Shown piece by piece: positions 1 to 52,039 of a stretch of 64,000 nucleotides of DNA. Position 1 is the first letter of the stretch. Each line of letters starts with the position of its first letter. A program made the position numbers and the translations under genes. This DNA comes from Psammoneis japonica. Its lineage: Eukaryota. The stretch spans positions 1 through 64,000 of the forward strand of contig QPGO01000141.1 of NCBI GenBank assembly GCA_008632985.1, in the 5' to 3' direction. Under the pieces are notes generated by a model that saw nothing but the letters and a program-made list of their open reading frames with translations, was not told the origin of the DNA and searched no databases.

Positions 1-2411
1 ACAGCAGTTTGCAGCACAACCACCTTTTGTTGCTGTCAATGTGAGAAAAATGCCCTGCAGTTGCCTGCATCACCAGAGTGCAATGGGGAGAACCTTGCTC
101 CCAAAACAACAGTGTGCCAGCACTGATCTTTAGAGTTGAGAGCTTCCAAGAGAACTGTGCCCTCCAAGCTGCTGTGGATCCTGTTCTCTGCATTGCCAAA
201 GCCAAGGCATGTCAACCTGCGCCAATTTGCAACATGACAAATTCTTCTGCCTTGCACAGTGGCAGCATGGGGGAGAAAGACCTCAACCCACAAAGAGAGG
301 GCCGTTCATCCGAAGTGCCAGGCAGCAGCTCTCTCTTCCTCAGGCACCAAGTCTGCACCATTGGGAGGGTCATCCAACAAGTTTGCTGGAGAACAAACAC
401 CTGCAAAAAACAGAGCAAGAGGATTGATTTTGTGAGAGTTTTGGGAAAAAACATTGTTGGCAGGATCACGTTTGATTCTGTCACCTGGAGCACTGTTGTG
501 TCCAGAAGGTCAGGAAACACAGCACTGCCTGCCTTTGGCAGAAGGAGGCAATCAGCCTGCAATCACAGGAAAGAAGCAAAGGCATTTCGTTCTTGGTTCA
601 TGAAGTTTGGGGTTGAGGGGCCAACTTTTTCCCAAACTTTTGACGGACATCGGCAGCATTGTGTGCTTGTGAATTGACAAGACCTGTTCCCAAACCATCT
701 TTGCAAAGGGACACTCAGAGCAAACACCAGCATCCAGCAGTGGCTGGAAATTCATGGTGTTTGCAATCTCTTGTTTTGATGTAAAACCAAGAGAGAACAG
801 CAGCACTTGACCAACCTTGGAGTTGCTTGCCTCATTGACAAGGTCCGTCTCCAGAGTTGTCATTTCTCTGGCATGTGGGGTCTTTTTCTGTGCAAGGCGG
901 AGAGACTCTGTGGTTTTGTTGGCTTTGGTGATTTTCTTCTGACGGTCAGCTGCCCTGGCCTGAATTTCTTTAATCAGCTTTTTGTTTTGGTGTTTGTGTG
1001 GTCCATGCATTCGCCACATGAAACGCAGCCACATTTTGCACTCCTTGTTGCATTGGCTGACAAATCAGGCAAGTGAGCCACACATTTCCAGCTCACAAAC
1101 TGCCTTGCAGCCAAAAGAAGCAATCCAAACCTTCAGAACAGCCATGATGCATTTGTCTGCTGAATCAAACTCCACATCACCAAGTGGAGGCGGGGAGAAC
1201 TGTTGTCAAAAATGCACTGTGACGGATCTGAGCTCTTGAGAGCTTGCCCAGCTTTTGACACCACACAGCTCCAAGTCACCACATTTGTTGTGAAGTCAGC
1301 CTGATGCTTTGTCTGTGACTTTGCCTTGTTTTGGAATTGCCGTGGCCATTGCATTGCAGAAATGACATTCTTGACAAGAAAAAGTGTTTCTGGGATGCCT
1401 TGCGACAACGGAGACCCTGCAGAACAAAAGAGCAATGCAGAAAGAGACAACACATGCAAGTCAAATGGGTGTCAATGTGTGAAGCCTCAACAAAACACAC
1501 AGCACAAATGGCAACACACAAGGCTGGTCATGATGCAACAGAAGTGACGCTGTCAATGCAAACCTTCAGCAAGAATTTTTGCCATCAGCTGCCCATGTGA
1601 ACCTGTGCGCTCTTGAGCTTGTCACGCACCTTGTGCTGTGACGTAAGACATTCTGTTGAGAGTGCACTGCAAAGCACCTCAGAAACAACTGCATTTTTGA
1701 AATCGGTGAAACGCCATTGTCCGTGTTGTTTTGCGTGTTGCTTTGAGCCGCGAGCCAGAAAACAGCCCCAAAAGTCATCCCACAGGGCAAAATGTGCTGA
1801 ATCAACACAGATTTGGGTTGTGCCAGGCCACGTAGAAAATGAACGGGCCAAGAACTGTGGTGCGCCCACTCAATGACATTGTGATGTGTTTGAGTCTTTC
1901 AAAACATTCAACACTTCAGCAAGTGATGTAAAATGTTGTTTTTTAAAAACAAAAGTGCAGCTTAAAGTGGGGCAGCAAATGAAGTGGATGGATGGATGTG
2001 ATCAAAATTCTGGTTGAAAACAAGTGGTGATGCCCTTGCAGGACACAAAACACAAAAACAATGGCGGAGAACAAGACGACGAGAGAGACATCAGTGGGGG
2101 AGGAAGCGGGGTGGCAGAGAGGAAGGAGGAAAGGTGTGAGTCACAAGGCACGAGACAGGGGGGGGTTTCCCACTTGGAAGGTTGTTTCAATTGTCAAAAA
2201 AAAAAGAAAAATTGGCAGAAGTGACTCATTGTCAAGATTGTGCTCACAATGAGGCTGGTTTGTTTCAAGCATTAAATCCTGCTTGGCATGTTGAAATGAT
2301 TGTCAAAACACATTTGTGCAGCATTGGTTGACCCTTGTCAAGAGAACAGGATTCTTGATGAGAAAGATTGGACTCTGAACAAGAGCAAAACAATGTTTTC
2401 CAGATGACCTT

Positions 2412-2861
2412 TTGAAGCCTCCCAAAATGAAGGAAGATGCAAAGAAGGGAAACATTTCTTTTGTGACTGACTTCTTCTTGAAAAATGAATGTCGTGGTCA
2501 TCCAAAGAAGAAGAAAGCAACATTTGCAATGGATGCTGCCAGCAGTGCTGCCAGAATTGACGAGGCACTTTCTGCGCCTGGGACAACAAACAACCAGTCT
2601 GCCAAGAAGACCGCTGCAGCTAAGAACAATGAGTGCAAGAAGTGCAAGGCTTCAATGGACAGTGGCAAAAGTGATGGGTCCATTGCAGTGAAGAAACTGA
2701 GGATGAATTGGTCCAAGGAGCCTCGTCTGTCAATCATGACGGGCGCAGCGAAGAACAAGTGGCTTGGCAAGAAGGGCCGGCATTGTGACAGAAACAGAGA
2801 AGCCCACTCAATGGAAGCATTGGCCAGTTTAGTTTGCAGTGTTCAGTGTTGTCAAAAATGA
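2412..2861 (+). pseudogene. Degenerate N-terminal fragment of a possible pogo/Tigger-like DNA transposase
   Basis: KKLRMNWSKEPRLSIMTGAAKNKWLGKKG...MEALASLV resembles, from memory, the HTH_psq-like N-terminus of diatom pogo-type transposases; no DDE domain seen. Confidence 0.3.
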
Positions 2862-3584
2862 TTTTGTCCTTCTCATTCTGTTGCAATGCACCTGCACAAC
2901 TTGCCAGCTCTGAGAAGATGTTTTGGACAAAACAGAAATCCATGATTCTCAACGACACACAATGAGACCAACCCAGTGGGATGCATTGTGCAATTGCTCC
3001 CAATGTTGAAAAAAGAAACAGGGAAATTGGCGCAAGCATCATTGAGATGTCATGCCACAAAGTGGGACACCAGTGGCGTGCATCATTGTGCTGTTGCAGT
3101 TTGTTGCATGCAACTTGGAAACACACAATGAACAGCAATGAATGTTGGCAATGCAAGTCACATGAACTTGCATGTTTTGTACAAACACCATGCCACAAAA
3201 AGAACCACTTTGTTTTTGCCAACACAAAAGACACAGAAACAAGCTTTGCAGCCAACGGAAATTCAATGAAGAACAAAAGTGCTCCACACATGATGCAACG
3301 CCTCACAAAACTTTGTTGGAGCTCGCAGCTCATGAGGGGCCAATGTGCTGTGGTCCAATTTAAAATGGCTTGCATTTTCTGCAGCTCACAGCATCATTTT
3401 GACCTGCCTTGGAACACCCCCAAGCACTCATGCACTCGTCAAACCCTCATGGGGGCTGTTGGACGGCTGCAAGAGCTGCACATTTGGCACTTCAAATGCC
3501 ACTTGTCAGCCCATGCCCTGTTGTCAGGTCAAAAAACCCGCCAATTTTTGCTGAAATCGGACTTCTTGTGGGAGATCAGCCACA

Positions 3585-3964
3585 GACAGGTTCCAGCCAT
3601 GGGTGGGACATTTTGTGACATTTGGCTTGTGGAATTCTGCGTGAAAGCTCTGCAGCAAAATTGCACAGCGATTGAAACTCAAACCACTGCCAACAGAAAA
3701 AGAGGCAATTTTGCAAACGCATCTCCTCCTCCACACTTGAAGCACATTGTTGTGTCATGCCTGGGCACGTTCTTCAGACATCAAAAAATGTGCCCCGTGC
3801 ATTTTTGTTGTCACAAGCCTTTGGCTTTGCAAAACAGGCACAGTGTGGAACAATTTTTTGCAACAGAGCACGCAGAAATGTGCACGTGAAACATGCGACA
3901 GATGACAAAAAACATTTTGTCACAGGTCAGAAGTGCATGGTCCCACCCAGAGCTGGAGCGCATC
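3585..3964 (+). mobile_element. MITE copy A (~380 bp, heavily TpA/CpG-converted)
   Basis: Ends gacaggttccagccatgggtggga...tcccacccagagctggagcgcatc match the family TIR; flanks caca/cgca (4-bp TSD with one CpG transition). Confidence 0.85.
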
Positions 3965-3993
3965 CGCAACTTTCTGGGAAATGCCAACAAAGT

Positions 3994-4390
3994 GATGCGT
4001 TCCAGCTCTCGGTGGGACCTTGCACTGCTGCGCTGTGACATCAAGAGTTTTTTGGATCGCATTGCATGTCGCACTTGCAGATTTCTACGTGTGACATTCT
4101 ACAAAATTGTTTCATGCTCCCCATTTTGCAAAGCCAAAGGCTTTCCATTTTCAACATTTGTGAGAATGAAAATGCTCTGGGTGTGTTCTTCAATGTCTGG
4201 AGAACATGCCCGGGCAAACTGTTGATGATGTGCCACAAGTGTGAAGGAGGAGATGCATTCGCAAAATTGCCTCTTTTTCTGTTGGTGATTGTTTGCATTT
4301 CAATTGCTTGACAAATTTGCTGCAGAGCTTGCACGCAGAATTCTACGGGCCCAATGTCACACGGAGTCCCACCCAGGACTGGAACCCGTC
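3994..4390 (-). mobile_element. MITE copy B (converted), inverted relative to copy A
   Basis: gatgcgttccagctctcggtgggacc...gtcccacccaggactggaacccgtc; perfect TSD aagt/aagt. Confidence 0.9.
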
Positions 4391-6380
4391 AAGTGGCGTT
4401 TGACTGGCTGCAGATGAGGTGAAAGTTGTGCATGGTCATGCCTGTTGTTCAAGCATTCCAGGGTGTCTGGGGAATGGACAAAGTTTGACCCATTGCTGAC
4501 TTTTTTTTTGCGAATGCACGCGCATTCGCTGCGGTGCATCCAGGTCATTTTTGTGAAAATTGCAAGCTCCCAAAAAACAGACTGCAACACGCAGATCCAT
4601 CCTCAAATTGCACTGCACTCTAACAAGACTCGCGTTGGTGTTGCAACGTCATTGTTTTTGTGCTGTCAATGTTTTTCATTGCAACAAACAAATCATGACT
4701 CAACGGATGATTTTCGGTGAAATGGTTGCTGTCATTTGGATGTCAAATTAAACATTTTTTCTGCAGGACCTTCCAGGAGGCACTCCACTTGCAAGCAAAA
4801 ATGCGTGTCCAATGCACTTTTGTGCAACCAGTGTTGAGTTTGCTGGGGAAGTTTGTGACACATGTCCCATGAGGACTCAAATGCCAACAAAAAAATTGTT
4901 TAGATGCACATGCTCTAGACACCTGCAAAAGCCCATCTGCACAAGTGTTTTGCATTCAAGTGCTCCATGCATGAGAGATGCACAACCAACGTTCAAAATG
5001 GAGTGTCATTTTGTGCATCACCTGGGACTGGAGCACATCAAAATCAAAGCAGCGCCAAAGCAAAAGAGTGGCCAGCACAGGAGCACTGTGCAAACTTGTC
5101 ATTTGAACAATCAAAGTTGACAAACAACTGCAAATTGATCATCCCTGCCCAAAGGTTTGGGTGCTTTGCTTGGGATGGCCTGCCAAGCATCCTTGCAGAG
5201 CGATTTCTGACCATGCTGCCTCAAGCTGGGCAACACCCCCATCTTGGGGCAAACAGAGCCAAGCGCCAGCCCGGCATTGTGTCTCACCTTGAGACAGCCA
5301 TGGACACAAAGGGCAGCACCAAAGCATCCCTTTCACAGCAACAAAAGGAAAATCACAAGCTGTGGGACCTCAGTGATGAGGTCAATTTGGCCAAGCTCTG
5401 CAGCCCATTGCAAGACAGCTGCCTGCAATGTTGCTCTTCATGGCAGCGTTTGTCTGGCATGAGCTCAAGCCCAGCACATGTGTGCAACCCAGAAGCTCAC
5501 AGTCAGCCAGAGGACCTTGGCCATGAGGTTGTGTGCTGGGGGTGTGCAACTGAAGCAGACTTTGTCTTGAAGCAACAACCCAGCTCCTCAAGCTCATTTG
5601 TGGCACAGCAAAGTGGTGTGGACATGCTGTCTCCATGCACCGCTGTGTGCACATGCAGCAACAAAGCCTGCCCCTTCAGGTCCAACTTGTTCCTTGAGCT
5701 GCACATCTGGGTCACAGCCACCAGGCACATGATTGCCATCCAAGGCAGTGCACGTGGAAGGCCAGGTGGTGGTTTGCAAAGGATGCAGCTGTGCCCTCAA
5801 GGTTGTGCAGCACTTGCTTGCTGACAGCACTCTTGGCAGCACCTCACCCAAACTCATGACAAAAGCAGTGGCTGCATTTTGTTGCACAAGGCAGTGGCAC
5901 AAAGTTGTTGTGCAGAGAGTCATGCTCAGCCATTGGCTGCAGCTTCTGTTGCCAGGGCATGATTGCCAGCTGCTGGCTGGTCAAGAAAGCTTGGTGCCAT
6001 GGCATGTGACTCCCTGGCCACTGTTTGGCTGTGGCAGGTGGTGATGAGTTCATGCTCCAGGTGGGACCGCACACTGCTGCTGGGCTGTGACATGAGAGAT
6101 TTTTGGTCATGTGCCATGGTGTGTGGTGTTCACATGCATCTGCACCTTTCTTGTCATGTCTGATCTGCTGTGTTGCTCAAATCAGCAATGGTGGGCACAT
6201 GACTGGAAAGGTTCTTGGGGCAACCACAGTGCAGGTCTGTTGCTTCCATGTTGCTCTGGTCACCTTGACAGGCATCTGGAATGACTTGCTTTGCTCCAAT
6301 GTGCCGCGAGACTCAATGGCAGTGCTGTGACCCAACTGAACAAACCTGTCTTCAGAGGCTGAAGCCACAACCTGCACTGT

Positions 6381-6622
6381 CTCAAACAGCTCCAAATGGA
6401 CAAAGAAAGTCCAAAATTACAAGGAACACCTCATGAGGTGAACACGACACAGAGACACAACCAAATGAGTGTGTGGTCAACCACAACTTTGATGCCCTGG
6501 CACCCCTGATTTGTCTGCACCCATGGAGGAGAGAGCATGGGAAGTTTGTCACCACAGACACACAAGAAAATGTCAATCGCTGCAGGAAACTCTAGATCCG
6601 CATGTTGCCACAAATGACACGA
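6381..6622 (+). repeat. ~200-bp dispersed repeat, copy 1 (second copy at 10698-10892)
   Basis: ctcaaacagctccaaatggacaaagaaagtccaaaat...ctagatccgcatgttgccacaaat is shared with 10698-10892. Confidence 0.85.
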
Positions 6623-9344
6623 ACTGAGGCTGCAACTTCATGTCTGTTTCAGCTGGTGAAAACTGCCGTTTTCATCATCACCTCCTGACAATTTTGCTGC
6701 AGAGCTCATGTGCAGCAATCCACACAAAAGTGTCACACAGAGCCACACCTCTGGGGCTGTGGTGTTCTCTTGGCAATGTCATGCAATGGCAGCTCAAGCT
6801 CTTGCTGGTTTGCTGTCTTGCTGGTGCCCATCCTGTGACTGTCTCCTGCTGCTTTGTCAGCAGCAAGCAGCAAAAACAAGAAAAAACAGCAAGTCCTGAG
6901 ACCCTGCGCATTGAAAAAATGTGGAAAGCAAAGTGCTGGCAAAAGCAGCTGCAAATTGTGCTGGTTGAGAAATGGTTTTGCAGAGCCGTTGTCAGCCTCA
7001 ATCTTTGCCATCACTTGGCGCTCATCTCTGAGCTTGGTGGGAGGTGGGAGCTTGGCTTTTCTCAGGTCTGGAGCTCAGGGCTGTGAAGATGAGTGCTGTT
7101 TTGTTGCTCCACTTGTGTCATTGCATGTTTGCAAACCATCATTGCAAGAAGTGTGAGCTTCTCTCCTTTGCCCAAGACCACATGAAAAGGGGAGAGCAGG
7201 CGACAACCGCGACGTGGCATGACGTGAGCGTGACATGTCAATGACGAACCATGTGACAATGCAGCATGTGGATCACGCACAATTGGGCCAGCAGTTTGGT
7301 GGCTTTCTACGTGGCCTGCGCAAGTTGAAGTGAAACGTCATCATGCACGCCTGCCAACCACTCAAATTTTCAAAAAAACTCCGCACAAATTCGTGCTTTC
7401 TCAAACCCCTCACCCAGTGCCTCCTGGCATGACGAGAAAGTGAGGGACCTGCATCCTTTTTTAAACTGAGCTCCCAGACACCCTCCTGGATGACACACCG
7501 AAAAAGGATGCAGGAGCACAAGGAGGAAGATCTCATTTCCACGGAAAAAGAGCATGTGCTCTCGTTTCTTCACGACATTGCATGAAACTTATGATGCAGC
7601 GCATGCTTTGGTCTGACATGGTCCAGCACCTGCCCTGGCAGTCTAGCGCATTCATTTGGTCTTCAAGACGAAGTGTGGATGCGCTTGTTGGGCGATTTGG
7701 GTCTGATTCAATCTTTTGTTGCGAGGAGATCTCTTGAATGACGCCTCATTGCTTGAGCACGTGTCTGCACTCATTTGCTCCAACATGGACAGCAAAGGGG
7801 AGAGAGAGCCCAAAGATGGAAACCAGACAGCCAACATGCCGTGCCATCCATTGTTGACAAGAATGATTGCAAACACTTGTCTCGTGCAATGTTCCGTTGG
7901 ATGACTCGGGTGTGTTGCGCAACTTTGCATTTTGCCAGACATCACATGACTTCAAAACTGCATGTCGCTCACAAGCAAAAAATGGCAAGGCACTGCAAGA
8001 CAAGGATGTTGTGTCCGAAGTGTTGAAGCGACATTGGATGAAGCCATCATCAGACAGTGACCCATTCAAAAACCAGAGAGCAGCCATTGACGACAAAAAG
8101 TCTTTGGTGTGTTTGTTCTGCACTCCCATGTTGAGACTGTTCTTTGTGGAGAGAGCAACCTTTGCATCTGTGATTTCATTGCAAGAATGCATTCACCGGT
8201 GTGGCAGGGTTTGTTCACGCCTGAATCTACGTCCAACCAAGTCAATCCCTTTCTGACTCGTTTCCAATCCCTGTGTGTGTGGCAAGTTGACTGGGCATTG
8301 TGCATTGAACCCAGACAGCTCTCAATCATTCCGTCTCAATTGACAAAATTGACGTGCAATCGACAATGAGCTTGATTGACATTCTCTGCATGTTGCTGCC
8401 AATCCAGCTGATCGGCCCATGCACTGCAGGCATTGCCAATCACATCTGCACAAGTTGGATCCCATCAAAAGAAGACATTGAAAAATGTGCACCAATGGAA
8501 ACCAAAAGGGACCCCCATCTTTTCTCACAGAACCGCTGCCGTCATGTGGGTCAATGCACGGACAAGTTCAATGAACGGCGCAAATGTTTCTTTTTCAAAA
8601 GTGATGTCAAGCTGAAGCGGGTGTGGCAGCCCAAGCTGCAAGGGAAGAGGCCAGAAATTGCATCTTCGAGGGCTGCAAGACAGGGAGGCCAGTTCTTGAA
8701 GATCCCTCAGTTGCACTTTGCACTGGCCGAGGGAACATCAATTTAGCCAGTGCGCAAACAATGACAACATGTTGCATGAAAATGCAAGCCAACAATGTGC
8801 GAGGCAAGACGCGGCCCCAACGACATTGTTGGACCGTGCCATTGTTGCTCAAATTCAGTCCAGAACTCACGAATTCAAAGCACAATGAAGAGAAAGTAAC
8901 AGCAAAGGACAACAAGAGCGAGACTCTTGTGCACCCACATCGTCAACACTCAACACGGCCAAAAGAACAAAAATCAACTTGTGTTTTGCGCGTCTCATCA
9001 ATTGACACACTTGCTTCTTTCCTGATTACTGAGAAACACACTGTGAGCAATGTCAGTGTCGCTGTCTCCGACGGGCTGTTGTGTGGTTGTGTGCCCTTCG
9101 AAGCAGCTGCCGAGTGACGAACGCAAACGGAATCATTCAAAGCATGTCATTCATTGTGCTGGCTGTTGGCCCCACTGTGTTCTCCCAGCATGAGCGAGAG
9201 CACAAAGCACTGAAATGGATCAATGTTGAAAAGTGCCGCGAAAATGCGTGACTTTCTACGCACGCAGCAAACATGCCAACAATCGGGGTGCTGAACGCGC
9301 GAAATGCACGTGGATGTCGACACAAACTTCCGACATTTTTTACC

Positions 9345-10367
9345 ATGTCGGCGGCGTCCTCGTCGGTGGGTTCGACATCTTTGTTGAGGTTCTTGTCGGA
9401 CGATGGTGTGAGAACACTGTTGGCGGGATGCATGACCACAAGCGGCGTCTTGTGTGGCTTGGGCCTGGAACACGCCATTGGACGCTGCGGCTTGGTGAAA
9501 AAGGCATCAGACGCCTTTGTGCTGGTGCATTGCCTCTTCACACTCTTGGCATGGCCGCTGCTTCTTCTGATTGGACTGTTGTCTTTCAGTGTTTTTGGGT
9601 TCCCTTTTGCCGTGACAGGTTTGTTCAACGGCGGCATTCCATTTCTGTTGTGCGACTGGGCTCTGTTTAAAGACTCCGGCCGTTCAAGAACAGCACGACT
9701 GTTGAATGCTGGGAAATTGTTTGGAAGTGCACTGCATCACTCAGCATTCTTGCTTGTTTGCAGTTTGATTGCCGTGCACCAAGTGGATCCCAATCGCCAC
9801 CTCCTGTCTGCTGGTGTTCCACTGCCACTCATGCACGTTTCGGCACTGCTGGAGGAGGTGTGGCCAGTGGCATGTCATTCCTTGGTGATCCTTTCCGAAG
9901 TTTGGTTTCAGTGTGAAGCCTTTGCCGCCCTGCCCACCCAACCTAGCGAAATGCAGGTGGCCTTTTACATGATGATTGTCGCACACTTGGTGTTCTTGTC
10001 GAGTGTGGGTGCCTTGATGCTTGTAAGCAAGTTGGTGAGTGCAGAATGTAGATTCGCGCGATTGTGTCTCTGAATCATTCCATGAACAAGAGTATATCTA
10101 AAACGTGCGTTTACTTTCACCCACCAGGACCCTGATGCCACAATTGTGCAACATGGTGGATCCAAGCATTGCGTTCTCAGAGTCAAGCACTGTCTACGAG
10201 CAAGAGAGAGTGCGGAAGATTCACACTCTCTTGACAAGAACAAAAACGACACAGATATAGACAACAACGCGTTGACCAACTCGGCATGCTCATACTCGAA
10301 AAACAACACTCCTATCTTCGACCAAGAAGCAAACATGCCTGCCGTCGTGGTCCATGACACGCATTGA
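9345..10367 (+). CDS. Multi-pass membrane protein of unknown function, 2 exons (intron 10035-10127); frame open but apparently recoded by TpA conversion
   Basis: Hydrophobic ORF 9345-10034; GTGAGT donor and CACCAG acceptor join it in frame to the 10146-10367 ORF; exon 1 has only one Tyr, near its 3' end. Confidence 0.6.
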
Positions 10368-10655: not shown

Positions 10656-10660
10656 TCTGA

Positions 10661-16789: not shown

Positions 16790-17178
16790 GACGCGTTCCA
16801 GCCCTAGGTGGGACTCCGTGTGACATTGGGCCCGTAGAATTCTACGTGCGAGCTCCGTAGTACGAGAATTTAATTAATGGATATATTTATCTTCAACATC
16901 AAATAAACGGCCAAGTTTGTGGTACAATTATGCCTCTTACCACTCGACGTTTTTGCAAATGCACCTGCCCTACGCGATTCTTAAGACATTATAGAATCGC
17001 GCTGTAACAAAAAATGTCAAAAGTTTTTGGACGGATCGCTCAATAAGTGTACCGTAAAATGACACAAAATATCAAAAAATCACGTAGAATTCTACGTGCG
17101 CGACATACGACGAGATTCAAAAAACTGTCGATGTCACAGTTCAGTAGTACGAGGTCCCACCTAGACCTGGAACGCGTC
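16790..17178 (+). mobile_element. MITE copy C (unconverted reference copy)
   Basis: TIR gacgcgttccagccctaggtgggac / gtcccacctagacctggaacgcgtc; TSD gagc/gagc; AT-rich interior; perfect palindrome cacgtagaattctacgtg at 17081-17098. Confidence 0.95.
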
Positions 17179-17399
17179 GAGCACGTGAGACAGTGTGGAG
17201 TGCTGAAAAACGCGGCGCTCCTCAAGGTTCCTGCATTTTTCTCTCTGCCAGTGTCTTGATCCCGAGTTGCTGGCTTGAGACTTCCATGGGTGTCTTGTTC
17301 CACAGATGCCAGGGGCAATGGATTGGCAGGTGGTTTTTCTTGTGAAGTGCACAGCAGGGGGGTGAGAGGTGGGGGGGCACTCCAACATCTTCACAAGCT

Positions 17400-18467
17400 T
17401 TGGTGACTTTCAAGGTTGCTCCTCTTGAAACCCCAAGATGCATGGTTTGTCCAAAGGGCAAACCTGTTCCAAACCCAGAAGTTGTTCATGCGGATCTTGA
17501 AATGACATGCGGAGGGATCGATGAGGTGGCAGCCACAGCGAGCGGCATTTCATGCCTCGTGTTCAAACTGAAGCCGCCGCTTGCGGCTGCGACACACCAC
17601 CCCCACCACAACACGTTCACCCCAACATGACGTGCTTGGTCTGTGTCAATGGCACTCCCATCCCAAAGCCTGACAGACAGACACAGGAGCTGGCATCAAC
17701 TTGTGGAGAACTTGGCGATGCAGCGTTGGATGTTCAAAGGGACTCCAGTGCATGCGTCGAGTTTCAGCAGTTTGCATTGTCATGCGGCTGTGAGAACTTC
17801 TGCAAGATACATTGTGTGAGGATGGTTCCTTGATTGACTCCTCCAGCGAGGAAAATGTGGTTCATGTTGACAATGGCTGCCCTGTTGCATGCGGTGAACT
17901 GGAGGCACAAGTCATGTCCAGAAAAAGCACACCTGGCAACTGTTTGACTGCTGGCTTCATTGGTGAAAACTGTTGTGGTTGTCCTGCCACCTCGACCAAT
18001 TCTTGTCAGGTTTGTGATGGAGGTGGTCTTCCCCACAATTTGAGCAGGCAAATCATCCCTGGCATTTCCTGTCAAGATCGTGTGGGTGGCCTCAGGTTCA
18101 ATGTGTTGACACCCGATCCAAGATTTGATTTTATGTGCTCGGCAGTTAGCATTGCGATTGCATCGAAATAGAATTTCCAAGGATGTGCTGTCGCGTGTGT
18201 GGAGACAATCTGCTGCCTGCACCTGACAGGATCATTTTCTCTCAGCCACTCAATGCAATGACGACCTGCTTCCATGTCAGTGCTCACAGGTTTGACATCA
18301 CGCTGTTTCCTCTTTTTAAGAAAAATCTCGCCGTCCTCGTTCCTTCCCTTGTTCCACTTGTACAGGTTGAATTCTTTTCTAACCTGGGCATTGCACCAAA
18401 TGGCAGTGTTATTCCTGAATGCTCAATAGTTCAAATGGAGAACGGTGCCGAGTGCTGCGTCCCCTAG
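17400..18467 (+). pseudogene. Cys-rich repeat protein (CxVC...TCGE...CGC units), frameshifted and TpA-converted
   Basis: ORFs 17400, 17552, 17812 and 18183 carry successive repeat units in different frames; TpA reappears toward the 3' end. Confidence 0.7.
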
Positions 18468-20290: not shown

Positions 20291-22605
20291 AATATAATGG
20301 TGTATACCTCCGCTGCGCTCTTAATTTCAACAACATGCAAGGCACTGCGCCGGTAAACAAAACTTCGTCAAGAGAACATACGTCTTTTGTGCTTATTCTG
20401 TGGAGAGCAACGGCAGAATCCGCAGCGTCGAAGGTTCAAACGAAAATTCGTTTACAGCATATCCAAACAATCTCTTTTGGGGTGGAGTCGTTGCTGAATG
20501 AATTACTCGGCATGCGAAAGATTTCAAACGCGCGGAAGAACGCATGGGAACTTCAAGAAGAAGTAACCCGAAAGTTCTCTGAAAGTTGCAGTAAAAATGA
20601 TGTAACATCACATGTCGACTGAATACACACATAACCTTGAACCGCGCCAGAATTTTTACAACATCAGATTCACCACCTCCCGCAAGACTTCTGCGATGCC
20701 GTGCTAAAGTTCGAGACTAGAGACACGGCACGGAGGAGATGTCGTCTCACAAAAAAGCAGACGCAGCCATGCAGCAGCCACACACAGCTGTCACAGAAGC
20801 CACCCGCAACCACAGAGCAGCCGCGCAGCATGCCCGCTTTGATCCTTGAGGCGCCAATCATGAATGTGTCTGGGGCCCCTTCCACCATGAGTGGTGATGA
20901 GTCTGCAATCAAAACGTTTGATGTGTTTCAAGACAAAAAACAAGACAAGCCGTTTCACGGATTGGAGGAACGTCATGTTGATGGATGCCACCTCAGGACA
21001 CTCATGATGCGTTCTTGTCGGGTGAGGGGCCAGGGTTGGGGTCAGGGTTAGAAGCGAAGATTCATGATGGCAGCGCCACTGACACATTGCAAGTTTTTTT
21101 AAATCTGGGCATCAAAAACAGATGCAAGCTTTCGAGACTGCAGTCCAGGCCTGTCGAGCGAGATGAACCTTCCTTGCTGCACAACTGAAACAGCAGAGTG
21201 AGCTGTTGACACGTGCATTGTCAGCACATGATGCTCAATGCACCGAGCTTGCAGATCAGTCTCAGACCCTTCGCAGCTTGGAGATCATTCAGCTTGAGGC
21301 CAACCAGCCCAGCAGGAAAAGGGCCGTTGAACTCCCATCGTCAGAGGAGAGGAAGGAAGCACGATGGATTTGGCAGAGGGGAAAAAATCCAATCAAGATG
21401 ACATGATCAACTGTGATGTCATTGTTGATGCAAACGTTGCCTCCACTCCAAATGGCGCAGCTGCCAACTCTGTGAGAACACCAGAGATGCTGCTGATGAT
21501 GCGCTGGCTGCTTCTTGACCTTGCATTGATTCTGACGAGTCAGCGGCTGTGACTGAGCCTGTGGTGGCCTCGGCGCCAAAGCCAAAACCTCACATTGCTG
21601 CAACGCTGCTCTCAACATGGTTTGCAAGCAACAAGTCTTCAAAGAAGAAGAAGAAAAAGAAGCTGACGCTGCAGGAGAAAGTGGTGGCTTGGTGAACAGC
21701 ACAGGTGCAGGGGTGTCTTTGCATGCGCTGCTCACTTGGCTCAAGCTGCATGGACACCTTTCAGGGTGGCTTTTGCAGCTGCAGTTCCTGAACAAGGAGG
21801 CAGAGCCACAGAAGTTCAAAGCTGCCATGGAGCTGCTGGAACACATTGTGGCTGATGACCAGTGGCGCACGATCCAACTTCATGATGACAAGTCCTTGGC
21901 TTTTCACAGTGTTTGTCATGCCGTGCAAAATGCATGCCTGGATGCGATGAGGAAGATGGAAGCAGACACTGGCATGAAAAAGCCACTGGAGAACAAGAAG
22001 AAGGAATGAACTCAGCCTCACTTTGTGGGTCTTGGTCTTTGAGACATGGCGCACAAGAAAAAGCAGAACACACCATCCATTGGCGAGAAGCAAACGAGCA
22101 CCTTGGCAGGATTTGTGAAGAAGGTTGCATCCAAAGCCATGGGCACCAGTCCCAAAAAACCCATGAACCCACATGCAACGAAGTGGGCAAAAGCAAAACA
22201 TGTGCCAAGCTGTTGTGTGTTGCAGCGCAAACAGAAGCTCACACTGCAGAAACATCTGTTTCAAATTTGGCGCCGTGCAACTGCTGTGATGCATCTGGTC
22301 GATTCGGATGAAGCAAGTGTGCTTTTCTCTCTGACAACTCCACAACGTGCCAATCATCATGGTGCAAGCAGACCAAGGTAAAATGCATGTGCAGCAAAAA
22401 AAAACTGTGTGTTTCAAAAATTTGGTTTGGCGCAACGACCAGTCAACTTGGATGAACAAGTTGAAAGTGCTTTTGTTGCCAACAACTCCAGAACTTGTCT
22501 TCATCATGACACAAGCAGGCCAAAGTAAAATGCAATTGGGTGGAGTAAAATGCACATCAAGTGATTGGGCACTGCAGCACATTTGCAGAACCATCTGTTT
22601 CTGTT

Positions 22606-22962
22606 TCAAATTTCATTCAATGCAACAACTGTGTGTCCAACAGATTTGGACACCTTTTTTGCCAACAACTTTGATGCTTGCCAATCATCTTGACACAACA
22701 TTGTGTTTGGGCTGTCCAAAACAAACTTGCAGAGATTTTCAACATCTCTTGCATCCTCAAGACTCTTCCCAGGAAAAGTTTGGCACTGAACCCACTCTGG
22801 ATTGGCAGAGATCTGATGCCACACTTGCAAAAACTCTTTCTCATCAGCTTGGTTTGGATTGCAAACATTTCCATTCCACCCATGCTTTGGTCTTGACTTT
22901 GGTGTTGGCTTTCCAACAACATCAACTTCAATCAAAGATCCCGTGCATGAAAACAGGGGCAT
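22606..22962 (-). pseudogene. rusA: RusA-family Holliday-junction resolvase, degenerate
   Basis: VVGKPTPKSRPKHGWNGNVCNP matches the RusA N-terminal GxPxPKxRP...GxxYxP motif; RDVENLCKFVLDSPNTMLCQDDWQASKLLAKK matches DxDNLxKxxxDxLNxxxYxDDxQ...K. Confidence 0.75.
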
Positions 22963-23372
22963 GTCCGAGATGGAGAATTTGGGTGATCGGATCTTTCAAG
23001 GACGCCCTCGTTTTTCTTCTTTGTTGCTTGCACACCATCTTCAAAACTGCTTTGTGTTTTTGGCTGAGGCACATTTGCCACACCACTGTTGGCACTTGAC
23101 AAACCACGATTGACGCTGAGCACCGTCACGGAACTTTGGCACTGGACCCAGTCTGGACTGGCAGAGATCTGATGCCACACTTGCAAACTCTTTCTCATCA
23201 GCTTGGTTTGGGTTGCAAACATTTCCATTCCACCAGTGCTTTGGTCTTGACTTTGGCGTTGGCTTTCCAGCAACGTCAAATTCAGTTGAAGATCCTGTGC
23301 ACAAAAACAGGGGCATGTCCAAGATGGAGAAATTGGGCAAGCAAGACTTTCGAGGATGCCCTCGTTTCTTCT
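22780..23372. repeat. Direct duplication of ~240 bp (22780-23018 and 23135-23372) covering the RusA N-terminus
   Basis: tttggcactg..ggcagagatctgatgccacacttgcaaa...ccctcgttt is present twice. Confidence 0.9.
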
Positions 23373-24167
23373 TCCTTGATGGCTCACCTTTGCCAGCATG
23401 CTGCCAAATCTTGATGATGACGGTGGGCAATGGCCATGCTCTCAAAGTCTTTTCCACCTTCGTCATTGCTTGCGCTGTCTGCAACTGTTGCGTCATTGGC
23501 AGTTCTTCCATCAAAACTTTGCCCCTTGACCATTCTGCAATCCACTGCACTTTGGGCATTCAGGAAACTTCTTTGCAGCATCCTCCACAGTGCAGCAGGA
23601 GAAAAGGCCTTCCACATGAGGATTTGCATGTGACGGCAACACACTTCCATCGCTCATCGCATGAGCTTTTGTGTTTTGATTGATTTTTGATTTTTTCAAA
23701 TTTCAAGATGACTCAACACACGACTTGATGCATGACTTGATGCACTCTCACGATTCACAGCCAAGTTTCAATGGAAGAACTTTTTTCCTCTGTGCACCCC
23801 CTCCATTTCCCAACTTTCAGCCGAAAGTTGGAGTGCTCCACGCTCCAAAAGGGGGCAACTTTCGCCAAAAGTTCACGCTGCACACAAAAGTTTGATTTTT
23901 CCAAAATGTTGGAGGCAAGAGAGGCACAAAAGCTCTTCTGAATGGAGTTTGGTGCAAAGGAAATTCTGATCTTAAAGTTTGCACAAGATGTCGGAGAGCC
24001 TTTTTGGGTCTGTGTCAAAAATGCCTGCTGCTGCTGTGTTGAAGTGCAGTTCTGAGCTGCACACTTCGGTCAAGTCGCTGGCTTCTTTTTTGAATTAAAG
24101 GGTCATTGCTTCTCTCAAATCAGCATGGCTTGTGTGGCACCACTGTGCATGCTTGTTGAGTGCAACA

Positions 24168-24495
24168 CATGCAGCTTCAATGCACACAACATGGATTTGC
24201 CCCAGTTGGATGAGGCACACAAGATCCACTGGAATTTCAACCCACCAACCCAAATCCCTGTGCATGAAGAATTGCAAGACAAGTGTTTCACCCATCAAAG
24301 AATCAAGTCAGCACTGTTCAAAATGTGCTCAAAGGGACTCAACAACAAAAAGGGAGTTGGATGAGGCACACAAGATCCACTGGAATTTCAACCTGCCAAC
24401 CCAAATCCCTGTGCACGAAGAATTGCAAGATCACCCATGAAAGAATCAAGTCAGCACTGTTCAAAATGTGCTTGAAGGGACTCAACAACAAAAAG
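24168..24495 (+). pseudogene. Two tandem degenerate copies of the 5' end of the kinase gene (source ~15910-16070, inverted)
   Basis: FHPSKNQVSTVQNVL vs kinase YHPSRNQVSTVQNVL; gatttgccc vs gatttaccc; aatgtgct vs aatgtact. Confidence 0.88.
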
Positions 24496-24554
24496 GGAGG
24501 GCAGAAGAGTTGAGGGGGGGGGGGGGGGGCAAGTGCAAAGCCAAGTGTGTGCAG

Positions 24555-24840
24555 CATGTCATTGAATGGTCGTTGATGCCACACAGCATGGCACCTTGGT
24601 TGCACATGAGAAGTGGAGCAATGACAGCAGTGCAGCAATCAATGCAGCAGAGAATGCCAGGGGGTGAAGGAGAGCACAGGCGCAACAAGAGACACACTTT
24701 TTTTCATTCTGCAGGGACCTTGGGCAAATGCAAAACGGCATTTTGAAGGTTTTGTCAAACCAGTGAAAGACATGAAAGTTTTGCCCCCTTGGTGGAGTGA
24801 GAAGCACAAGGCTGTGCTTTTCTTTGGTGGCTGCAATGTG
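24555..24840 (+). pseudogene. Degenerate fragment homologous to the 18702-20290 gene (inverted)
   Basis: KRHFEGFVKPVKDMKVLPPWWSEKHKAVL vs KEHFDGFLKAMKDTNFLPPWWNEKHEAAL. Confidence 0.8.
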
Positions 24841-26244
24841 GCACACAAAGGGCAGGAAGCTTTTGCTTTTCCAGGCTGTCCAACAAGCCTTGACTTGGAC
24901 AAGAGCCTGATGTGGACAAGACAAACTGCCAAGCCACAATTCAAGCCCTGAAAGACAGTTCTCTGAACAACAAGAAGCACTCTGATGGGGAAACACAAGA
25001 CATTGTGAATTCTTTAAGGTCAAAGCATTGCCAAGAATGCACTCAGATCTGGCAGCATCCATGGGGGCGAAAGGCTCCATTTGTTTGATGACTGATTTGT
25101 CTGCTGCAAGTGTTCTGCATCTGACGGTGCATGCACCAGCCACAGGTGGACATGTTGACTCAAAAAAGCAGACTGACACTTTTCATGTCCAGTGCAAAAG
25201 ATGCTGTTGAGAACGGAAAGGAAACATCAAGCTTGGTTGCACCACTTCCAAAATTTGAGCAGTGCGGGCCTATGACACTGTCACTGAGATTGAAATCAAA
25301 GCTGGTGAACAGTGGCAGACACCATCATCAGGACCTGAGTCCAAACTGAACAAAGCACACAATTCTCTTGCTCGTTGTGGAAACTGTGGCAGAGTGCAAA
25401 GCTTGTCAATGGATCCAATCACATTGGAGGGGCTGGTTCAGCACAGTGCAACAATTGAAGAAAAAGAGTGAATTGAGAAAATGATCCTGTGATGTGAGCA
25501 AAGATTCCGCATGATTTTGGGGGTGTCGTGCCTTGCCAGAACATTTTGCATCTGATCAAAATCAACAACCTTGCCAAAAAGAAAGGGAAGAATCTGCCAC
25601 ATCCTCATGTGATGGGTTTAGAAAATGATGCCAGTGAGCGTTTCTTGTCCAAGTGTTTGCAAGAGCAGCAGAAAAGGAGTGAAGATTTGACATCTCACCC
25701 CAAGGCCAACCGTTGCACATTCAATTTGTGTGGCACAAAGCCAGTCACAAACCCCTGCAGTGGAGTGACAAGTGACAGCCAGCAAGAACAAGTTGCCAAA
25801 ACCCAGAAAGAGGACAAAGCTCACAATCACACTGTCAAGATTGATCCATTCCCAAATGACACGCCGTTGTTAAATGCCACTCACATGGATGTTGAGCAGC
25901 AATTTAATGTGATGCAAGCAATGCAAAACAAGCTTGCACGGCAGCTCCAGTTTGCAACAAGGGCCAGATTCGGGTTGAATGGAAATGACATGTCATCCTG
26001 CATCATTGTCACGTGTTCCTGCAATGCAAAATGCAGTGTTACAACATGGTGGGGTAACCCCCTAGAGGTCAACCACCCCATGCCAAAGACTGCCCCATGA
26101 GGCAGCCATCAGGATCAGAACGGCAGAGAGGAATTGCAAAAGGACTGTCCAAAGAGGCAGAACTCCTCGACAAGGCAGCTTTGTAACTTCTAGGCGTTAT
26201 ATGTATTAATGCTGATATCGACATTATCTTGCTAAAATTACAAG

Positions 26245-27912: not shown

Positions 27913-29199
27913 TCCGATAAAGGACAATGTCAACAATGTTGCCACTGCTTTTCCTTTTAGCACGCGCGCGTGAGAAGTTAGTTTTGCTGGCAGTGCGGCA
28001 GTGGCGCGGGGGGAGGGACAGATGCGGAGCTGGGGTGGAACTGACTGGCTGGGTCATGCAGGCAGGAAAGGGCGTGGAGTTGTGGCAGGGGTTGTTGAGA
28101 CGGGAACGGAGTTTGACAGAGCAGCGTGTGAGGTGGTCAGCAAGGGATTTGGTGATGGCAAAGCCAGTGCTTTGGAGACCCCACTGTGCGGGAGCAGCGG
28201 TGTGATGGGTGAGGCCAAATCGGCGGCGGAAGTGTTTTTCCATGCGGTGGCAGCTGCGGGGAGTGTGCCGGAGTGTTGTTCTTAACTCCGCTCTGGTGTG
28301 CATTTGTGATGACATCATCACATGCATTGAGTCAATTTTTTTACATTCACGCCAACGTGAATGTCCTTGAGCAAACTCTCAGATCTCACAACGCCCCTCT
28401 GGCAGTTCCCTGACCACCAAACACAGAGGGCGAAAACAATGCACGTTGCATGGGCTCCACCATGATGCCATCCCCCCATTGTCCCCAATGCCCAGCCATG
28501 CTGCTGCCCCTGTCCGCAGCAGCAATCTCTCCTGCACAAGCTCAGCAGTTGTCGAGTCATCGTCAAGTGGGCGAGGAAGTTGCAAGTTGGCTCTCATGTG
28601 CAGATTCAGTCGTTGTTGAGTTGAGTGCTCTGCAATGTTTGTTGTGACATTGCAATTTCGAAATGGCAATTTCAAGCTGCAAAAATCCAAACATTCAAGT
28701 TGTCATTGGGCTGCTGAACAAGCTGAGCTGTGCTGTGTTGTGCCGATGTGTGTCGTGTTGCTTGTGCCAAGGTCTTGTTCTTTCAAGGCTTCTTTGTTTG
28801 ACCAGGCATCACTTCCATCCTAGATTTGGCAACAACCAAGTCAAGCAGCAAAAAAATCCATCATGCAGATGGATGACATGCAGGAAAAAACACAAGCTGC
28901 AGCTGCTGGTGGTTCAAGAATGCAAAGGTGAGAACCAAAGCAGAGATTTGCCATGGCTGAATTTTTGCTTGCATTGACCGTGCGATGGAATTTTTGCTTG
29001 CATTGACCGTGCGATGGAACCAGCAGCAGAGCTCACCCTGCTCTGCCAAGCATGAGGATGTTTGCCAAGTGCATTGGATGCTTTTTCTTTGCAGCTTTGG
29101 TGCCAATCGGCCTGATTGGACACAAAAAATTTCTCGTGATGGCGGCGTTCCCATGCTCCGCTTTTGTGTGATCTGTTTTGTCTTGTGAGCAGTTCAGCC

Positions 29200-30680
29200 A
29201 GCAGTCATCAGAGTGTTCGCTGCTGGGTTCACATTTTCCACTTTGTTTCTCAGAATGGTGGATCTTGCGTGCTTGTCCGTCATTGCAGTCCAAGGATTCA
29301 TCACTCAAAGAGCAGCATGATTGATCCAATTCATGTTGGAGATGTGACAGTTGCGCTTGCAGCAACGGTTGTTCTGACCCCGGTTGCGGCAGTTGTGTTT
29401 ATCCCGGTCGTCATGCTTGAAGGATGCTTTCTTGTGACGTGGATGTCCTGGGTGATTGCACTCCTGGTCATTGTGTCCAGACTTTTTGCAAAAGTCACAG
29501 TGCTTGGGTTTTCAGGGAATCTTGCACCCAGACGTTCCCTTGCAAGATGCCTTGTGGACGTTCTTCTCATTGTTGCAGTCATCGCTTCCATGACGCCGAT
29601 CATTCCAATGCTCATTGCATCTCTTCTTGTGTTTCTCTGCTTGAGGGTTCACACCATTGGCTGTGAGTTTGTCATGCCAAGCTTGCGGTGCGCTCTTGAT
29701 GAGCATGTTGACATGATCATCGTCTGTCAAAGTGGGCTGTGGGTCCAGCGCTTCACAACGGGTTCCAGTCCTGGGTGGGACTTTTTGTGACATTTGCCCC
29801 GCAGGTCAATGGATGTGTTCATCTTTGACATAAAACAAACGGCCAAGTTTGCAGTGCACATGTCTCTGTTCGCACTCAAAGTTTTGGACAACGTGCCTGC
29901 CCTGCACCATTCTCAAGACACTCGAGAATGGCGCAGAAGAAAAAAATGTTAAAAGTTGTTGAATGGATCGCCTGACAATTGCACTGTAAAATGACACAAA
30001 ATTTTTGCCAAAATCACACAGAAATGTGCATGCGCGACATGCGACACGATTCAAAAAACCATCGATGTCACAGTTCAGCAGCACGAGGTCCCACCTGGAC
30101 CTGGAATGCGTCTCACCTTCGTTGACGATGTCCATCAAAAACTGCTGAAGGTCAGCTGTCATGCCATCTGTCGCCGAGACGAGCTGTTTGTGTGTCACTC
30201 CGGATGGTTTCTTGAGGGTCTTCAGACACTTGATCTGGTTGCATTGAGGCATGTTGCTCTTGAGGCAATGTGTCTTGAACGTCTCAAGGACTGCTTGGAA
30301 CATGTCTTCTCTCTCCAGCGCCGGATCTTCAAATTCCTGATGTGCTTGCACCCAATTGATCTTCACTGCACTGATGAGGCAAGTGGAAAAGATGCCAAAC
30401 TTGGACAGGCCTGCTTCACAGGGCTTGTGGTCAAAGATCTCCTTCACCTGTTTTAAGAAATCACATGAGAAATGGAGGTCATCATCGCCATGCTCACTGC
30501 TGAAAGATGTCACTTTCTTTTCATGCGCTCCACTGTGGATGTCGTTTGGGACATCTCAAACTTCAAACTTCGCAGTGGGGCCCTTGAAGTGTTTCGGAGT
30601 TTCCCACTGTCCGGTGAGTTCGAAGGAAGGCATCGCACAGTGTCATTGGAAGTCATCGTGAAAAAACGCGTGAAGTGAAT
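29200..30680 (-). mobile_element. Decayed LTR-retrotransposon gag (Ty3/Gypsy-like), split by MITE D
   Basis: CCHC knuckle CDFCKKSGHNDQEC at ~29457-29499; QIKCLKTLKKP and LTDDDHVNMLIKSAPQAW gag-like motifs; removing MITE D plus one TSD restores NEGEALDPQP. Confidence 0.75.
29757..30112 (+). mobile_element. MITE copy D (converted, internal deletion)
   Basis: aacgggttccagtcctgggtgggac...gtcccacctggacctggaatgcgtc; TSD tcac/tcac; aligns with the reverse complement of copy F. Confidence 0.92.
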
Positions 30681-30692
30681 TCACTGTGCACT

Positions 30693-31084
30693 GACGCGTT
30701 CCAGCCCTAGGTGGGAGCTCGTAGCACTGACGTGTGACAACAATAATTTTTATCATCCGTCGTATGTTTCGTACGTAGATTTCTACGTGTGATATTTAAA
30801 AAAAATTGTCCAGACTCGCTGTTTTGCGAAGCCCCAGACGTTTTATATAACAAATTTATAGAAACAATAATGCACCAGTTACATTCTTCAATGTCTGAAG
30901 AATGTAACTGGCTAAGTAAAAAATGATGTACTTCAATCATGTGCGAGTTTGTGCGTTCGCAAAATTGCCTCATTTTCTGTTGGCGATCATTGACATTTTA
31001 ATTACCGTGTAATTTTACTACGGAGCTCGCACGTAGAAGTCTACGGGCCCAATGTCACACGGATTCCCACCTATGGAACGCGTC
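30693..31084 (-). mobile_element. MITE copy E (unconverted; interior of the A/B type)
   Basis: gacgcgttccagccctaggtggga...tcccacctatggaacgcgtc; TSD cact/cact. Confidence 0.93.

Positions 31085-48949: not shown

Positions 48950-48951
<2 letters not shown>

Positions 48952-48984
<33 letters not shown>
48952..48984. repeat. (GA)n microsatellite
   Basis: Visible GA run. Confidence 0.9.
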
Positions 48985-48986
<2 letters not shown>

Positions 48987-51813: not shown

Positions 51814-52039
51814 TGGTTGGAGCCGCAAATGGTGTTTCCGACTAATCGCTAGGCAATTTTTTATTATTAGATGTATCATTGATTGGACCGAAAGTGTCTA
51901 AAACGATTTGTGTGGGTAGGCTGCTAACAAAGACAGGGGTGCATCGTCATCGAAATAATTGCCAAAGAATGCTCTAATCCATCGCATTGCGCTTAAACGG
52001 CAGCACTTGACGATTGATCAAAAGCCAGAGAGCTGATAC

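Follow-up and report, generated by a model that had tools for sequence, protein, structure and literature searches.

Loss of TpA uncoupled from the decay of CpG in sharply bounded domains of a diatom contig

Background

Hypermutation of resident DNA at a single dinucleotide, TpA, has been described once before, in a 2026 preprint on the chlorarachniophyte Bigelowiella natans, where TpA is converted to TpG/CpA in integrated giant-virus and virophage DNA (Mettrop et al., bioRxiv 10.64898/2026.01.13.699255). The same signature is present in a diatom, Psammoneis japonica, and is analyzed here in the first 64,000 nucleotides, forward strand, of contig QPGO01000141.1 (assembly GCA_008632985.1), a stretch hereafter called the window. 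Our particular subject is positions 9100-9960, at the edge of a domain almost free of TA, where TpA has been lost and CpG has not, and the relation between these two kinds of loss across the window as a whole.

According to the B. natans preprint, 230 of the 231 mutations seen in viral regions of mutation-accumulation lines were A>G or T>C, every one of these GC-biased changes was at TpA, and this TpA-only de novo mutation proceeds at ~1000 times the background. Genome-wide, 124 TpA-depleted clusters were found in ~95 Mb, the TpA-depleted genes are enriched in transposon-type domains, and an ADAT2-like deaminase has been proposed as the agent. Its text does not mention CpG, boundaries, spreading, sequence context, TTAA, or diatoms (10.64898/2026.01.13.699255). 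A literature search found no report of TpA hypermutation in diatoms.

The signature in P. japonica resembles that of B. natans in that TpA is converted to TpG/CpA on both strands within discrete domains, leaving TpA depletion together with CpA+TpG enrichment as the long-term trace. However, the host is a diatom, a member of the Stramenopila rather than the Rhizaria, and the editing is much deeper and wider. The observed/expected ratio of TA is 0.04-0.05 in P. japonica, compared with the 0.45 given for the B. natans giant-virus region, and 47% of this one window is TA-free, as against the 124 clusters of an entire genome. In addition, the editing covers DNA of single-copy depth and a conserved gene of cellular type, and CpG decay is superimposed on it. 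De novo mutation has been measured in B. natans, whereas here the process is known from its trace in the sequence. What is new, then, is the diatom host, the depth and extent of the editing, the nesting of CpG decay within it, an exception at TTAA, borders that are sharp and in one case lie within coding sequence, and demonstrable damage to a conserved gene, in which conserved Tyr residues have become His or Cys while the frame stays open.

In ascomycete fungi, repeat-induced point mutation (RIP) converts CpA to TpA and so raises the TA and AT content; it needs duplicated sequence, creates stop codons, and leaks into neighbouring single-copy genes. Like RIP, the process considered here is an in-place, domain-wide, dinucleotide-specific hypermutation of DNA that ruins mobile DNA and can harm genes adjacent to the domain edge. 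However, its direction is the opposite, with TA lost and CA/TG gained. Furthermore, the DNA at 5337-9943, which is of single-copy depth, is edited, whereas three copies of a repeat of very high summed depth are not. In contrast to RIP, too, the editing of TpA removes TAA and TAG and cannot create an in-frame stop. Fungal RIP itself was ruled out by its opposite direction and by the independence of the present editing from repeats.

In animals, ADAR hyper-edits the RNA of repeats, with a preference for U before the edited A, and APOBEC3 edits the DNA of retroelements. By analogy, the process in P. japonica would likewise be a deaminase-based defence against mobile or foreign sequence. Unlike these systems, which act on RNA or on replication intermediates and leave their mark on one strand of new copies, it affects both strands of resident chromosomal DNA, extends into flanks that are not mobile, and has sharp borders.

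As to CpG, a study of Phaeodactylum tricornutum indicates that CG methylation in diatoms is directed chiefly at transposons and is maintained by DNMT5a (PMC9998398). If this holds in P. japonica, deamination of 5-methylcytosine would be the simplest source of CpG loss. The conversion of CpG to TpG/CpA in blocks rich in transposons, until about a quarter of the normal CpG is left, is indeed like the decay of methylated transposons elsewhere. However, the CpG loss in the window is nested in a larger domain set by a different mutation, and methylation is assumed by analogy only.

TpA and CpG in the window

The G+C content of the window is 47.6% (base counts over 64,000 bp), and over its whole length, the observed/expected ratios are 0.33 for TA, 0.70 for CG, and 1.47 for both CA and TG. 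Expected counts were taken from the rates of the window's own normal DNA, 40.7 TA and 55.7 CG per kb, and TA domains were called by a two-state hidden Markov model (HMM) segmentation; all results concern this single 64-kb window with its 17 internal borders.

At 9100-9960, there are 4 TA where 35.0 would be expected (Poisson P 4e-11), whereas the 47 CG are close to the expected 48.0, and CA+TG stands at 199 per kb against 152 in normal DNA. Thus, TpA has been lost at this site without loss of CpG, as a preliminary description of this DNA had claimed from about 4 TA and abundant CG at 9180-9960, where we count 4 TA and 43 CG. That description had placed the same kind of margin at three other sites. 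Two of them are as claimed, with 2 TA (8.2 expected) and 11 CG (11.2 expected) at 20700-20900, and 1 TA (12.3 expected) and 16 CG (16.8 expected) at 28000-28300; the third is taken up below.

In all, nine TA-free domains occupy 30,035 of the 64,000 bp. They contain 2.6-3.0 TA per kb compared with 40.7 in normal DNA, and 206-224 CA+TG per kb compared with 152. Because the density of TA jumps from 0.6 per kb over the 100 bp just within the borders to 54.7 per kb over the 100 bp just beyond them, the borders are steps, although the segmentation sets every border at a TA, which makes the step look somewhat sharper than it is. The TA-free DNA is of two sorts: in 19,691 bp, CG is depleted as well, whereas 10,344 bp retain 49-75% of their CG. 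The former make up five core blocks of 7-15 CG per kb, or 12-28% of normal, four of them at 26-28%; the latter make up six CG-retaining blocks of 27-42 CG per kb. The claim that domain cores lack both dinucleotides therefore stands, as at 1-7200. In contrast, CG-poor DNA with normal TA amounts to just 797 bp of the window. Of the CG-depleted base pairs, 96.1% are nested in TA-depleted DNA, a value matched by 0 of 1260 circular shifts.

The idea of a margin at the domain edges needs revision. The TA-poor DNA that keeps CG is real, but it comes as discrete blocks in a mosaic and not as a gradient. At 6 of the 17 boundaries (26040, 41314, 45087, 52038, 58218, and 61241), there is no such block, and a core lies directly against normal DNA; conversely, three domains (17163-18131, 27980-30707, and 47385-49334) have no CG-poor core at all. 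Within the 9.9-kb domain at the left end of the window, the change in CG is abrupt at 7200/7201, with 1 CG in 7001-7200 and 14 in 7201-7400. The next sub-block, 7401-8800, has 39 CG where 78 would be expected, and the outermost, 8801-9943, has 60 CG (63.7 expected) and 5 TA (46.5 expected). Only in this outermost sub-block is the CG of TA-free, CG-retaining DNA fully normal.

The third of the other proposed margins, 31.5-31.9k, holds only in part. The CG content of 31500-31900 is normal (23, with 22.3 expected) and its TA is reduced (5, with 16.3 expected, P 0.001), but the depletion is partial and there is no domain edge, since this stretch lies ~800 bp outside the boundary at 30708, beyond an unedited transposon copy. 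To the right of that copy, 31085-32000 has 14 TA where 37.3 would be expected, with normal CG, and includes a 250-bp TA-free gap at 31702-31951; this zone may have been edited in part. Where TA is partly depleted outside the domains (at 31085-32000, 26500-27000, 62481-63000, and 57500-57893), the depletion is indistinguishable from the ordinary variation between genes.

Conversion in place

Taken together, TA, CG, CA, and TG keep a nearly constant density: normal DNA has 248 per kb, TA-free DNA that retains CG has 247, and the cores have 241. This argues that both TA and CG have been turned into CA/TG in place. In addition, the G+C content is 0.50-0.52 where TA alone is lost and returns to 0.47-0.48 where CG is lost as well, as expected from opposite transitions. 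The change of TpA to TpG/CpA is A:T to G:C, whereas the change of CpG to TpG/CpA is G:C to A:T; consequently, neither can be a by-product of the other.

A direct comparison is afforded by a family of miniature inverted-repeat transposable elements (MITEs) whose members are ~390 bp long, end in inverted repeats, and are flanked by 4-bp target duplications; the window has three TA-normal and three TA-free copies (Table 1). One and the same ancestral TA of the family has become CA in one of the edited copies but TG in a second, which identifies TA as the ancestor. In the edited copy at 29758-30115, the converted TA sites have become CA (9) or TG (8-12), while control sites are largely kept (CA at 13 of 16 and TG at 15 of 18). 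Background divergence within the subfamily is equal, 10.5% for this edited copy and 9.6-10.8% for two unedited ones, and in the unedited comparison copies together, only 3 of 20 TA and 2 of 30 CG have been converted. The difference between edited and unedited copies is significant for both TA (Fisher P 9e-7) and CG (P 0.01). Within 29758-30115 itself, TA has gone further than CG (20/22 compared with 8/21, Fisher P 4e-4). The conversion of CG to TG/CA is at 8/21, 12/25, and 11/23 in the three edited copies and at 1/17 and 1/13 in unedited ones, and in the repeat segment 52244-52497, which lies in a CG-poor core, 0 of 9 CG are kept, 7 of the 9 having become TG/CA. In the MITE and repeat copies of CG-poor cores, TA survives at just 0-2 sites. 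When eight edited repeat segments are pooled, 90 of 124 TA and 51 of 101 CG have become CA/TG.

The greater completeness of TA loss is also apparent outside of repeats. In 8801-9943, 11% of the expected TA is left, compared with 94% of the expected CG, giving a ratio of log-losses of 38 as a point value and 4 as a conservative bound. This ratio is 2.8-8.1 across the CG-retaining blocks and 1.0-2.6 in the cores, where it is lower because TA is already at its floor. The floor is about 7%, even in cores that have lost three quarters of their CG, and it is context-dependent. Among the 83 TA that survive in TA-free domains, 35% lie in TTAA, compared with 4.9% in normal DNA, and none lie in ATAT, compared with 7.9%; T preceding TA is over-represented (chi-square P 1.6e-21). 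Thus, the editor seems to disfavour T before, or A after, the TA. A periodic spacing of the surviving CpGs was looked for in the window, and none was found.

Contigs of run X1, which were built from exact 31-letter words at a depth of ~58 and whose summed depth is not a copy number, provide information on which DNA is edited. The summed depth marks 668-5336 and the MITE copies as repeated and puts 5337-10005 and 17343-18009 on a par with single-copy genes. Since such single-copy-depth DNA is edited too, editing is not confined to repeats.

Given all of these findings, it is very probable that two distinct processes are at work and that TA loss is the more complete of the two. The proposal that TpA loss is a separate process, either faster than CpG decay or spreading beyond it, is thereby sustained; it is supported by the nesting, by the comparison of MITE copies of the same sequence, by the opposite direction of the two mutations, and by the precedent of B. 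natans.

A conserved gene at the domain edge

The first 599 nt of a gene for a multi-pass membrane protein, 9345-10073, lie in the TA-free domain, whose TA boundary is at 9944. As the gene probably extends over the whole of 9345-10073 and ends at TGA, the border of the edited domain would fall inside the coding sequence. When 1.84 billion representative proteins were searched in full by HMMER with the open reading frame (ORF) 9345-10034, 46 relatives were returned, the best with an E of 3e-56 and 51% identity over 239 aa; a word-based protein search with the same ORF, which is less sensitive than HMMER, gave no match. The relatives lie on contigs of 1-2 kb and belong to no Pfam family, and the family was not found in IMG/VR viral contigs.

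The window copy retains all nine invariant residues of the family alignment. However, at the three positions at which all three close homologs have Tyr, the window protein has Cys, Cys, and His. Tyr is present in at least one close homolog at 11 positions, and six of these are His or Cys in the window protein, with TGY or CAY codons that are one step from TAY. The sole Tyr codon of the gene is at 9966, just past the border at 9944. Furthermore, there are no TA-containing sense codons in 9345-9941, whereas they make up 6.2% in host ORFs, and T|A codon junctions are at 0.5% in the edited part compared with 4.5% in host ORFs. Judged by its homologs, ORF 9345-10073 is a genuine gene that has been damaged by TA editing.

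The length of an ORF was rejected as evidence for a gene. Because editing erases TAA and TAG, length alone is uninformative in TA-free DNA, and an ORF of 273 aa or longer appears in 40% of Markov simulations of such DNA. The TA-free domains contain 13 ORFs of 200 aa or more, compared with 4.5 expected by simulation. Since TpA editing never makes an in-frame stop, edited DNA comes to resemble coding sequence, and the frame of an edited gene is not closed. For annotation, this means that TA-free DNA gives long spurious ORFs and that edited genes look intact when they may not be.

A proposed model of fast editing and slow decay

Taken together, these results have led to a model in which two processes of very different speed act on the same silenced diatom DNA. 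The first would be a TpA-specific A:T to G:C hypermutation, which leaves TpG on one strand and CpA on the other, acts on both strands of sharply bounded domains and on repeated and single-copy DNA alike, and removes ~93% of TA, with TTAA resisting. Its agent, by analogy with B. natans, is most likely an enzymatic deamination of adenine in DNA. The second would be a slower decay of CpG to TpG/CpA, most likely through deamination of 5-methylcytosine; only the older core blocks would have come down to its floor, ~27% of normal CG. In 8801-9943, consisting of the upstream region of the gene and its first 599 nt, the first process would be complete and the second barely begun. This kinetic hierarchy, in which a fast, saturating editing of TpA is followed by a slow decay of CpG and 8801-9943 is the block most recently engulfed, is held here with middling confidence.

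Four cores (1-7200, 21605-26039, 41314-45086, and 58218-61240) have a nearly equal residue of CG, 26-28% of normal. This shared residue looks like a decay equilibrium rather than a reflection of different ages.

The main reason for preferring a faster TpA process to a merely wider one comes from the differences between the window and the X1 contigs. Among those listed in single-copy TA-free DNA, five of seven, including 9191 and 9632 within 9100-9960, are CG versus TG/CA. Among the differences listed, CpG-type changes are at about 4 of ~145 CpG in 7201-9943 and 17163-18131, whereas the figure for normal DNA is 1 of ~485 (Fisher P 0.011), a hint that CpG decay is now under way in the CG-retaining blocks.

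Several points weigh against such a hierarchy. The argument from polymorphism is a weak one, consisting of four sites, among the differences listed, from X1, which is possibly the source run of the assembly itself. The presence of 5-methylcytosine is assumed by analogy. An order of block ages that is derived from CG content alone is circular, and the CG-retaining blocks, which cluster at 49-75% of normal, could equally represent a second plateau that results from partial methylation. Furthermore, there are cases of the reverse uncoupling: just outside the TA-free domains, 26040-26277 and 61241-61449 are CG-poor with normal TA, the latter having 2 CG where 11.6 would be expected, 9 TA, and 220 CA+TG per kb. 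Consequently, CG loss does not always come after TA loss. Finally, unedited MITEs that lie in or at TA-free DNA are not predicted by an editor that is purely position-based and continuously active.

The three unedited MITE copies all have intact target duplications, and each is situated at a TA-free border or as an island within a TA-free domain. The element may have inserted once editing was over, preferentially at borders; alternatively, it may be immune or may act as a barrier.

Other explanations

In a second model, the two processes have different footprints rather than different speeds. TpA editing would be aimed by a mark, such as a histone state or small RNAs, that extends more widely than DNA methylation, and the CG-retaining blocks, including 8801-9943, would never have been methylated and would therefore keep their CpGs. 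The abrupt change in CG at 7200/7201 is what the border of a methylated unit would produce, and CG is normal in 8801-9943 over the upstream region and 5' end of a gene, a place that is often unmethylated. The three TA-free domains with no CG-poor core, and the clustering of CG-retaining blocks near 56-75% of normal CG, would also be accounted for. However, by whole-block counts, all six CG-retaining blocks have lost 25-51% of their CG. In addition, the edited MITE within such a block has 8 of its 21 CG converted, compared with 2 of 30 in unedited copies (P 0.01), and CpG-type differences from the X1 contigs are enriched in these blocks, among those listed. All three observations indicate that the CpGs of CG-retaining blocks decay faster than those of normal DNA. 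A wider footprint, the main rival of the kinetic hierarchy, is regarded as possible but rather doubtful.

It is improbable that a single ADAT2/TadA-like deaminase is responsible for both changes, acting efficiently on A in TpA and inefficiently on C in CpG, with no need for methylation. Such an enzyme would explain why both conversions occur in the same domains and why CG loss is nested in TA loss, and the B. natans preprint notes that the ADAT2 of amphioxus edits A and C in DNA and that the trypanosome ADAT2 deaminates C in DNA (10.64898/2026.01.13.699255). However, the 230 of 231 changes from A or T in B. natans, as given there, would put any activity on C at under ~1% of that on A in that organism. 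Furthermore, there are the CG-poor segments with normal TA (61241-61449 and 26040-26277), and the floor near 27% of normal CG that is shared by four cores is the outcome to be expected of a decay driven by methylation.

Explanations in which nothing was mutated in place, and the composition comes from codon usage, from selection against TA, or from foreign DNA that had it natively, are very unlikely. It is true that the normal DNA of the window is already TA-poor (observed/expected 0.57) and that TA-free gaps of 150-250 bp occur in ordinary genes as well, but paralogous repeats align TA with CA/TG while control CA/TG sites are kept, the Tyr positions of homologs are His/Cys in the edited gene, that gene lacks TA-containing sense codons in its edited part, and the mass balance of the four dinucleotides holds.

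Least likely of all is an artefact of sequencing or assembly, in which modified bases at the TpA and CpG of silent chromatin are misread: misreading of a modified dinucleotide that is symmetric would yield CA where one strand is read and TG where the opposite strand is, in agreement with the sequence, but to our knowledge, no natural base modification alters pairing in such reads at more than 90% of sites, and the X1 contigs match 5007-10651 with 0-3 differences, a single contig spanning 9944, an agreement that rules out long-read miscalling even though X1, as the possible source of the assembly, is not independent confirmation.

If the kinetic hierarchy is extended beyond this window, one may tentatively suppose that a chromatin-directed editor of DNA adenine, acting on a large scale in diatoms and chlorarachniophytes, is an old genome defence of the SAR (stramenopiles, alveolates, and Rhizaria) supergroup. 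Such an editor would be independent of cytosine methylation, would saturate before CpG decay registers, and would spare TTAA. It would also keep acting while CpG decays, since TA remains at ~7% in cores that have lost three quarters of their CG, and it would overrun neighbouring cellular genes, changing Tyr to His/Cys and producing no stops. If so, genes beside silent DNA would be subject to a fast, directional force comparable to the leakage of RIP in fungi. Should the editing occur in a transformable model diatom, both the enzyme and its targeting would be testable by knockout.

Content and surroundings of the domains

The positions of the domains, blocks, and elements are given in Table 1.

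Table 1. Positions of the TA-free domain, its core and CG-retaining blocks, MITE copies, and the edge gene in the 64-kb window
Feature	Position	Strand	Description
Multi-pass membrane-protein gene (conserved family)	9345..10073	+	242 codons and TGA stop; HMMER relatives
TA-free domain	1..9943		runs past left end of window; 3.3 TA, 22.3 CG, 220.8 CA+TG per kb; HMM segmentation
Core, TA-free and CG-poor	1..7200		3.1 TA, 15.0 CG per kb (27% of normal CG)
TA-free CG-retaining block	7201..9943		41.6 CG per kb; single-copy depth
TA-free CG-retaining block	17163..18131		1.0 TA, 31.0 CG per kb; single-copy depth
TA-free CG-retaining block	20719..21604		38.4 CG per kb; left edge of core 21605-26039
Core, TA-free and CG-poor	21605..26039		14.7 CG per kb; holds RusA-like ORF 22609-22995 (-)
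TA-free CG-retaining block	27980..30707		34.8 CG per kb; holds edited MITE copy 29758-30115
TA-free CG-retaining block	40110..40985		27.4 CG per kb
Core, TA-free and CG-poor	41314..45086		15.4 CG per kb
TA-free CG-retaining block	47385..49334		38.5 CG per kb
Core, TA-free and CG-poor	52038..53338		6.9 CG per kb; 52244-52497 is the edited counterpart of TA-normal repeat 62240-62488
Core, TA-free and CG-poor	58218..61240		15.2 CG per kb
Edited MITE copy	29758..30115	-	20/22 ancestral TA and 8/21 ancestral CG now CA/TG
Edited MITE pair, inverted orientation	3585..3964, 3993..4390	-, +	TA kept 0/23 and 2/23; CG kept 4/23 and 7/25
Unedited MITE copy	16790..17178	-	target duplication GAGC; exactly at left border of TA-free block 17163-18131
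Unedited MITE copy	30692..31084	+	target duplication CACT; exactly at right border of TA-free block 27980-30707
Unedited MITE copy	40971..41359	+	target duplication TTGT; TA-normal island inside TA-free domain

With respect to whether the target is foreign or mobile DNA, the repeated depth and a RusA-like ORF stand on one side, and the single-copy edited DNA and the conserved gene stand on the other. When 94 ORFs of at least 110 aa from TA-free DNA were searched against Pfam, 93 had no convincing mobile-element family, the rows other than RusA being at chance level, and none of 89 ORFs from TA-free DNA matched PHROGs. The remaining ORF, 22609-22995 (-), in a CG-poor core, matches the RusA Holliday-junction resolvase just over the Pfam cut-off (24.7 bits, E 4e-5), which hints at DNA derived from a phage or virus. 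It is overlapped by a tandem duplication, 22776-23026 / 23132-23381, whose copies are 87% identical. A scan of metagenomes with the end motif of the MITE gave 120 single-match loci in unrelated habitats, none with a TA-free window, as would be the case for chance matches.

Contigs of a second run, X2, labelled 'DNA?', skip GT..AG segments of 89-96 nt within genes (12489-12577, 13536-13631, and 15086-15175); X2 thus behaves as a transcriptome of the same sample. In the region 1-20000, X2 contigs lie on 10131-10495, 10985-13986, 14288-16385, and 18690-20000. There are none on 4003-10005 or 16676-18009, an absence of cover that does not amount to silence.

Long exons are typical of the ordinary genes of the window, whose products are helicase-associated-domain proteins, a kinase, FG-GAP repeat proteins, a PPR protein, an MFS transporter, and a violaxanthin de-epoxidase-like protein. 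A search for homologs of the last, at E 1e-20, returned none. FG-GAP paralogs of 45087-45500 differ from one another at 29% of sites and are too far apart for a comparison of partial editing. The organism-named matches of the MFS transporter are all from diatoms (Nitzschia, Mayamaea, Cylindrotheca, Helicotheca, Conticribra, Epithemia, and others), with at most 55% identity.

Several borders (28053, 47318/47385, 53490/53566, 57862/58218, and 49335/49708) lie 70-400 bp from the 5' end of an ordinary ORF, a position that fits with borders that are set by active promoters.

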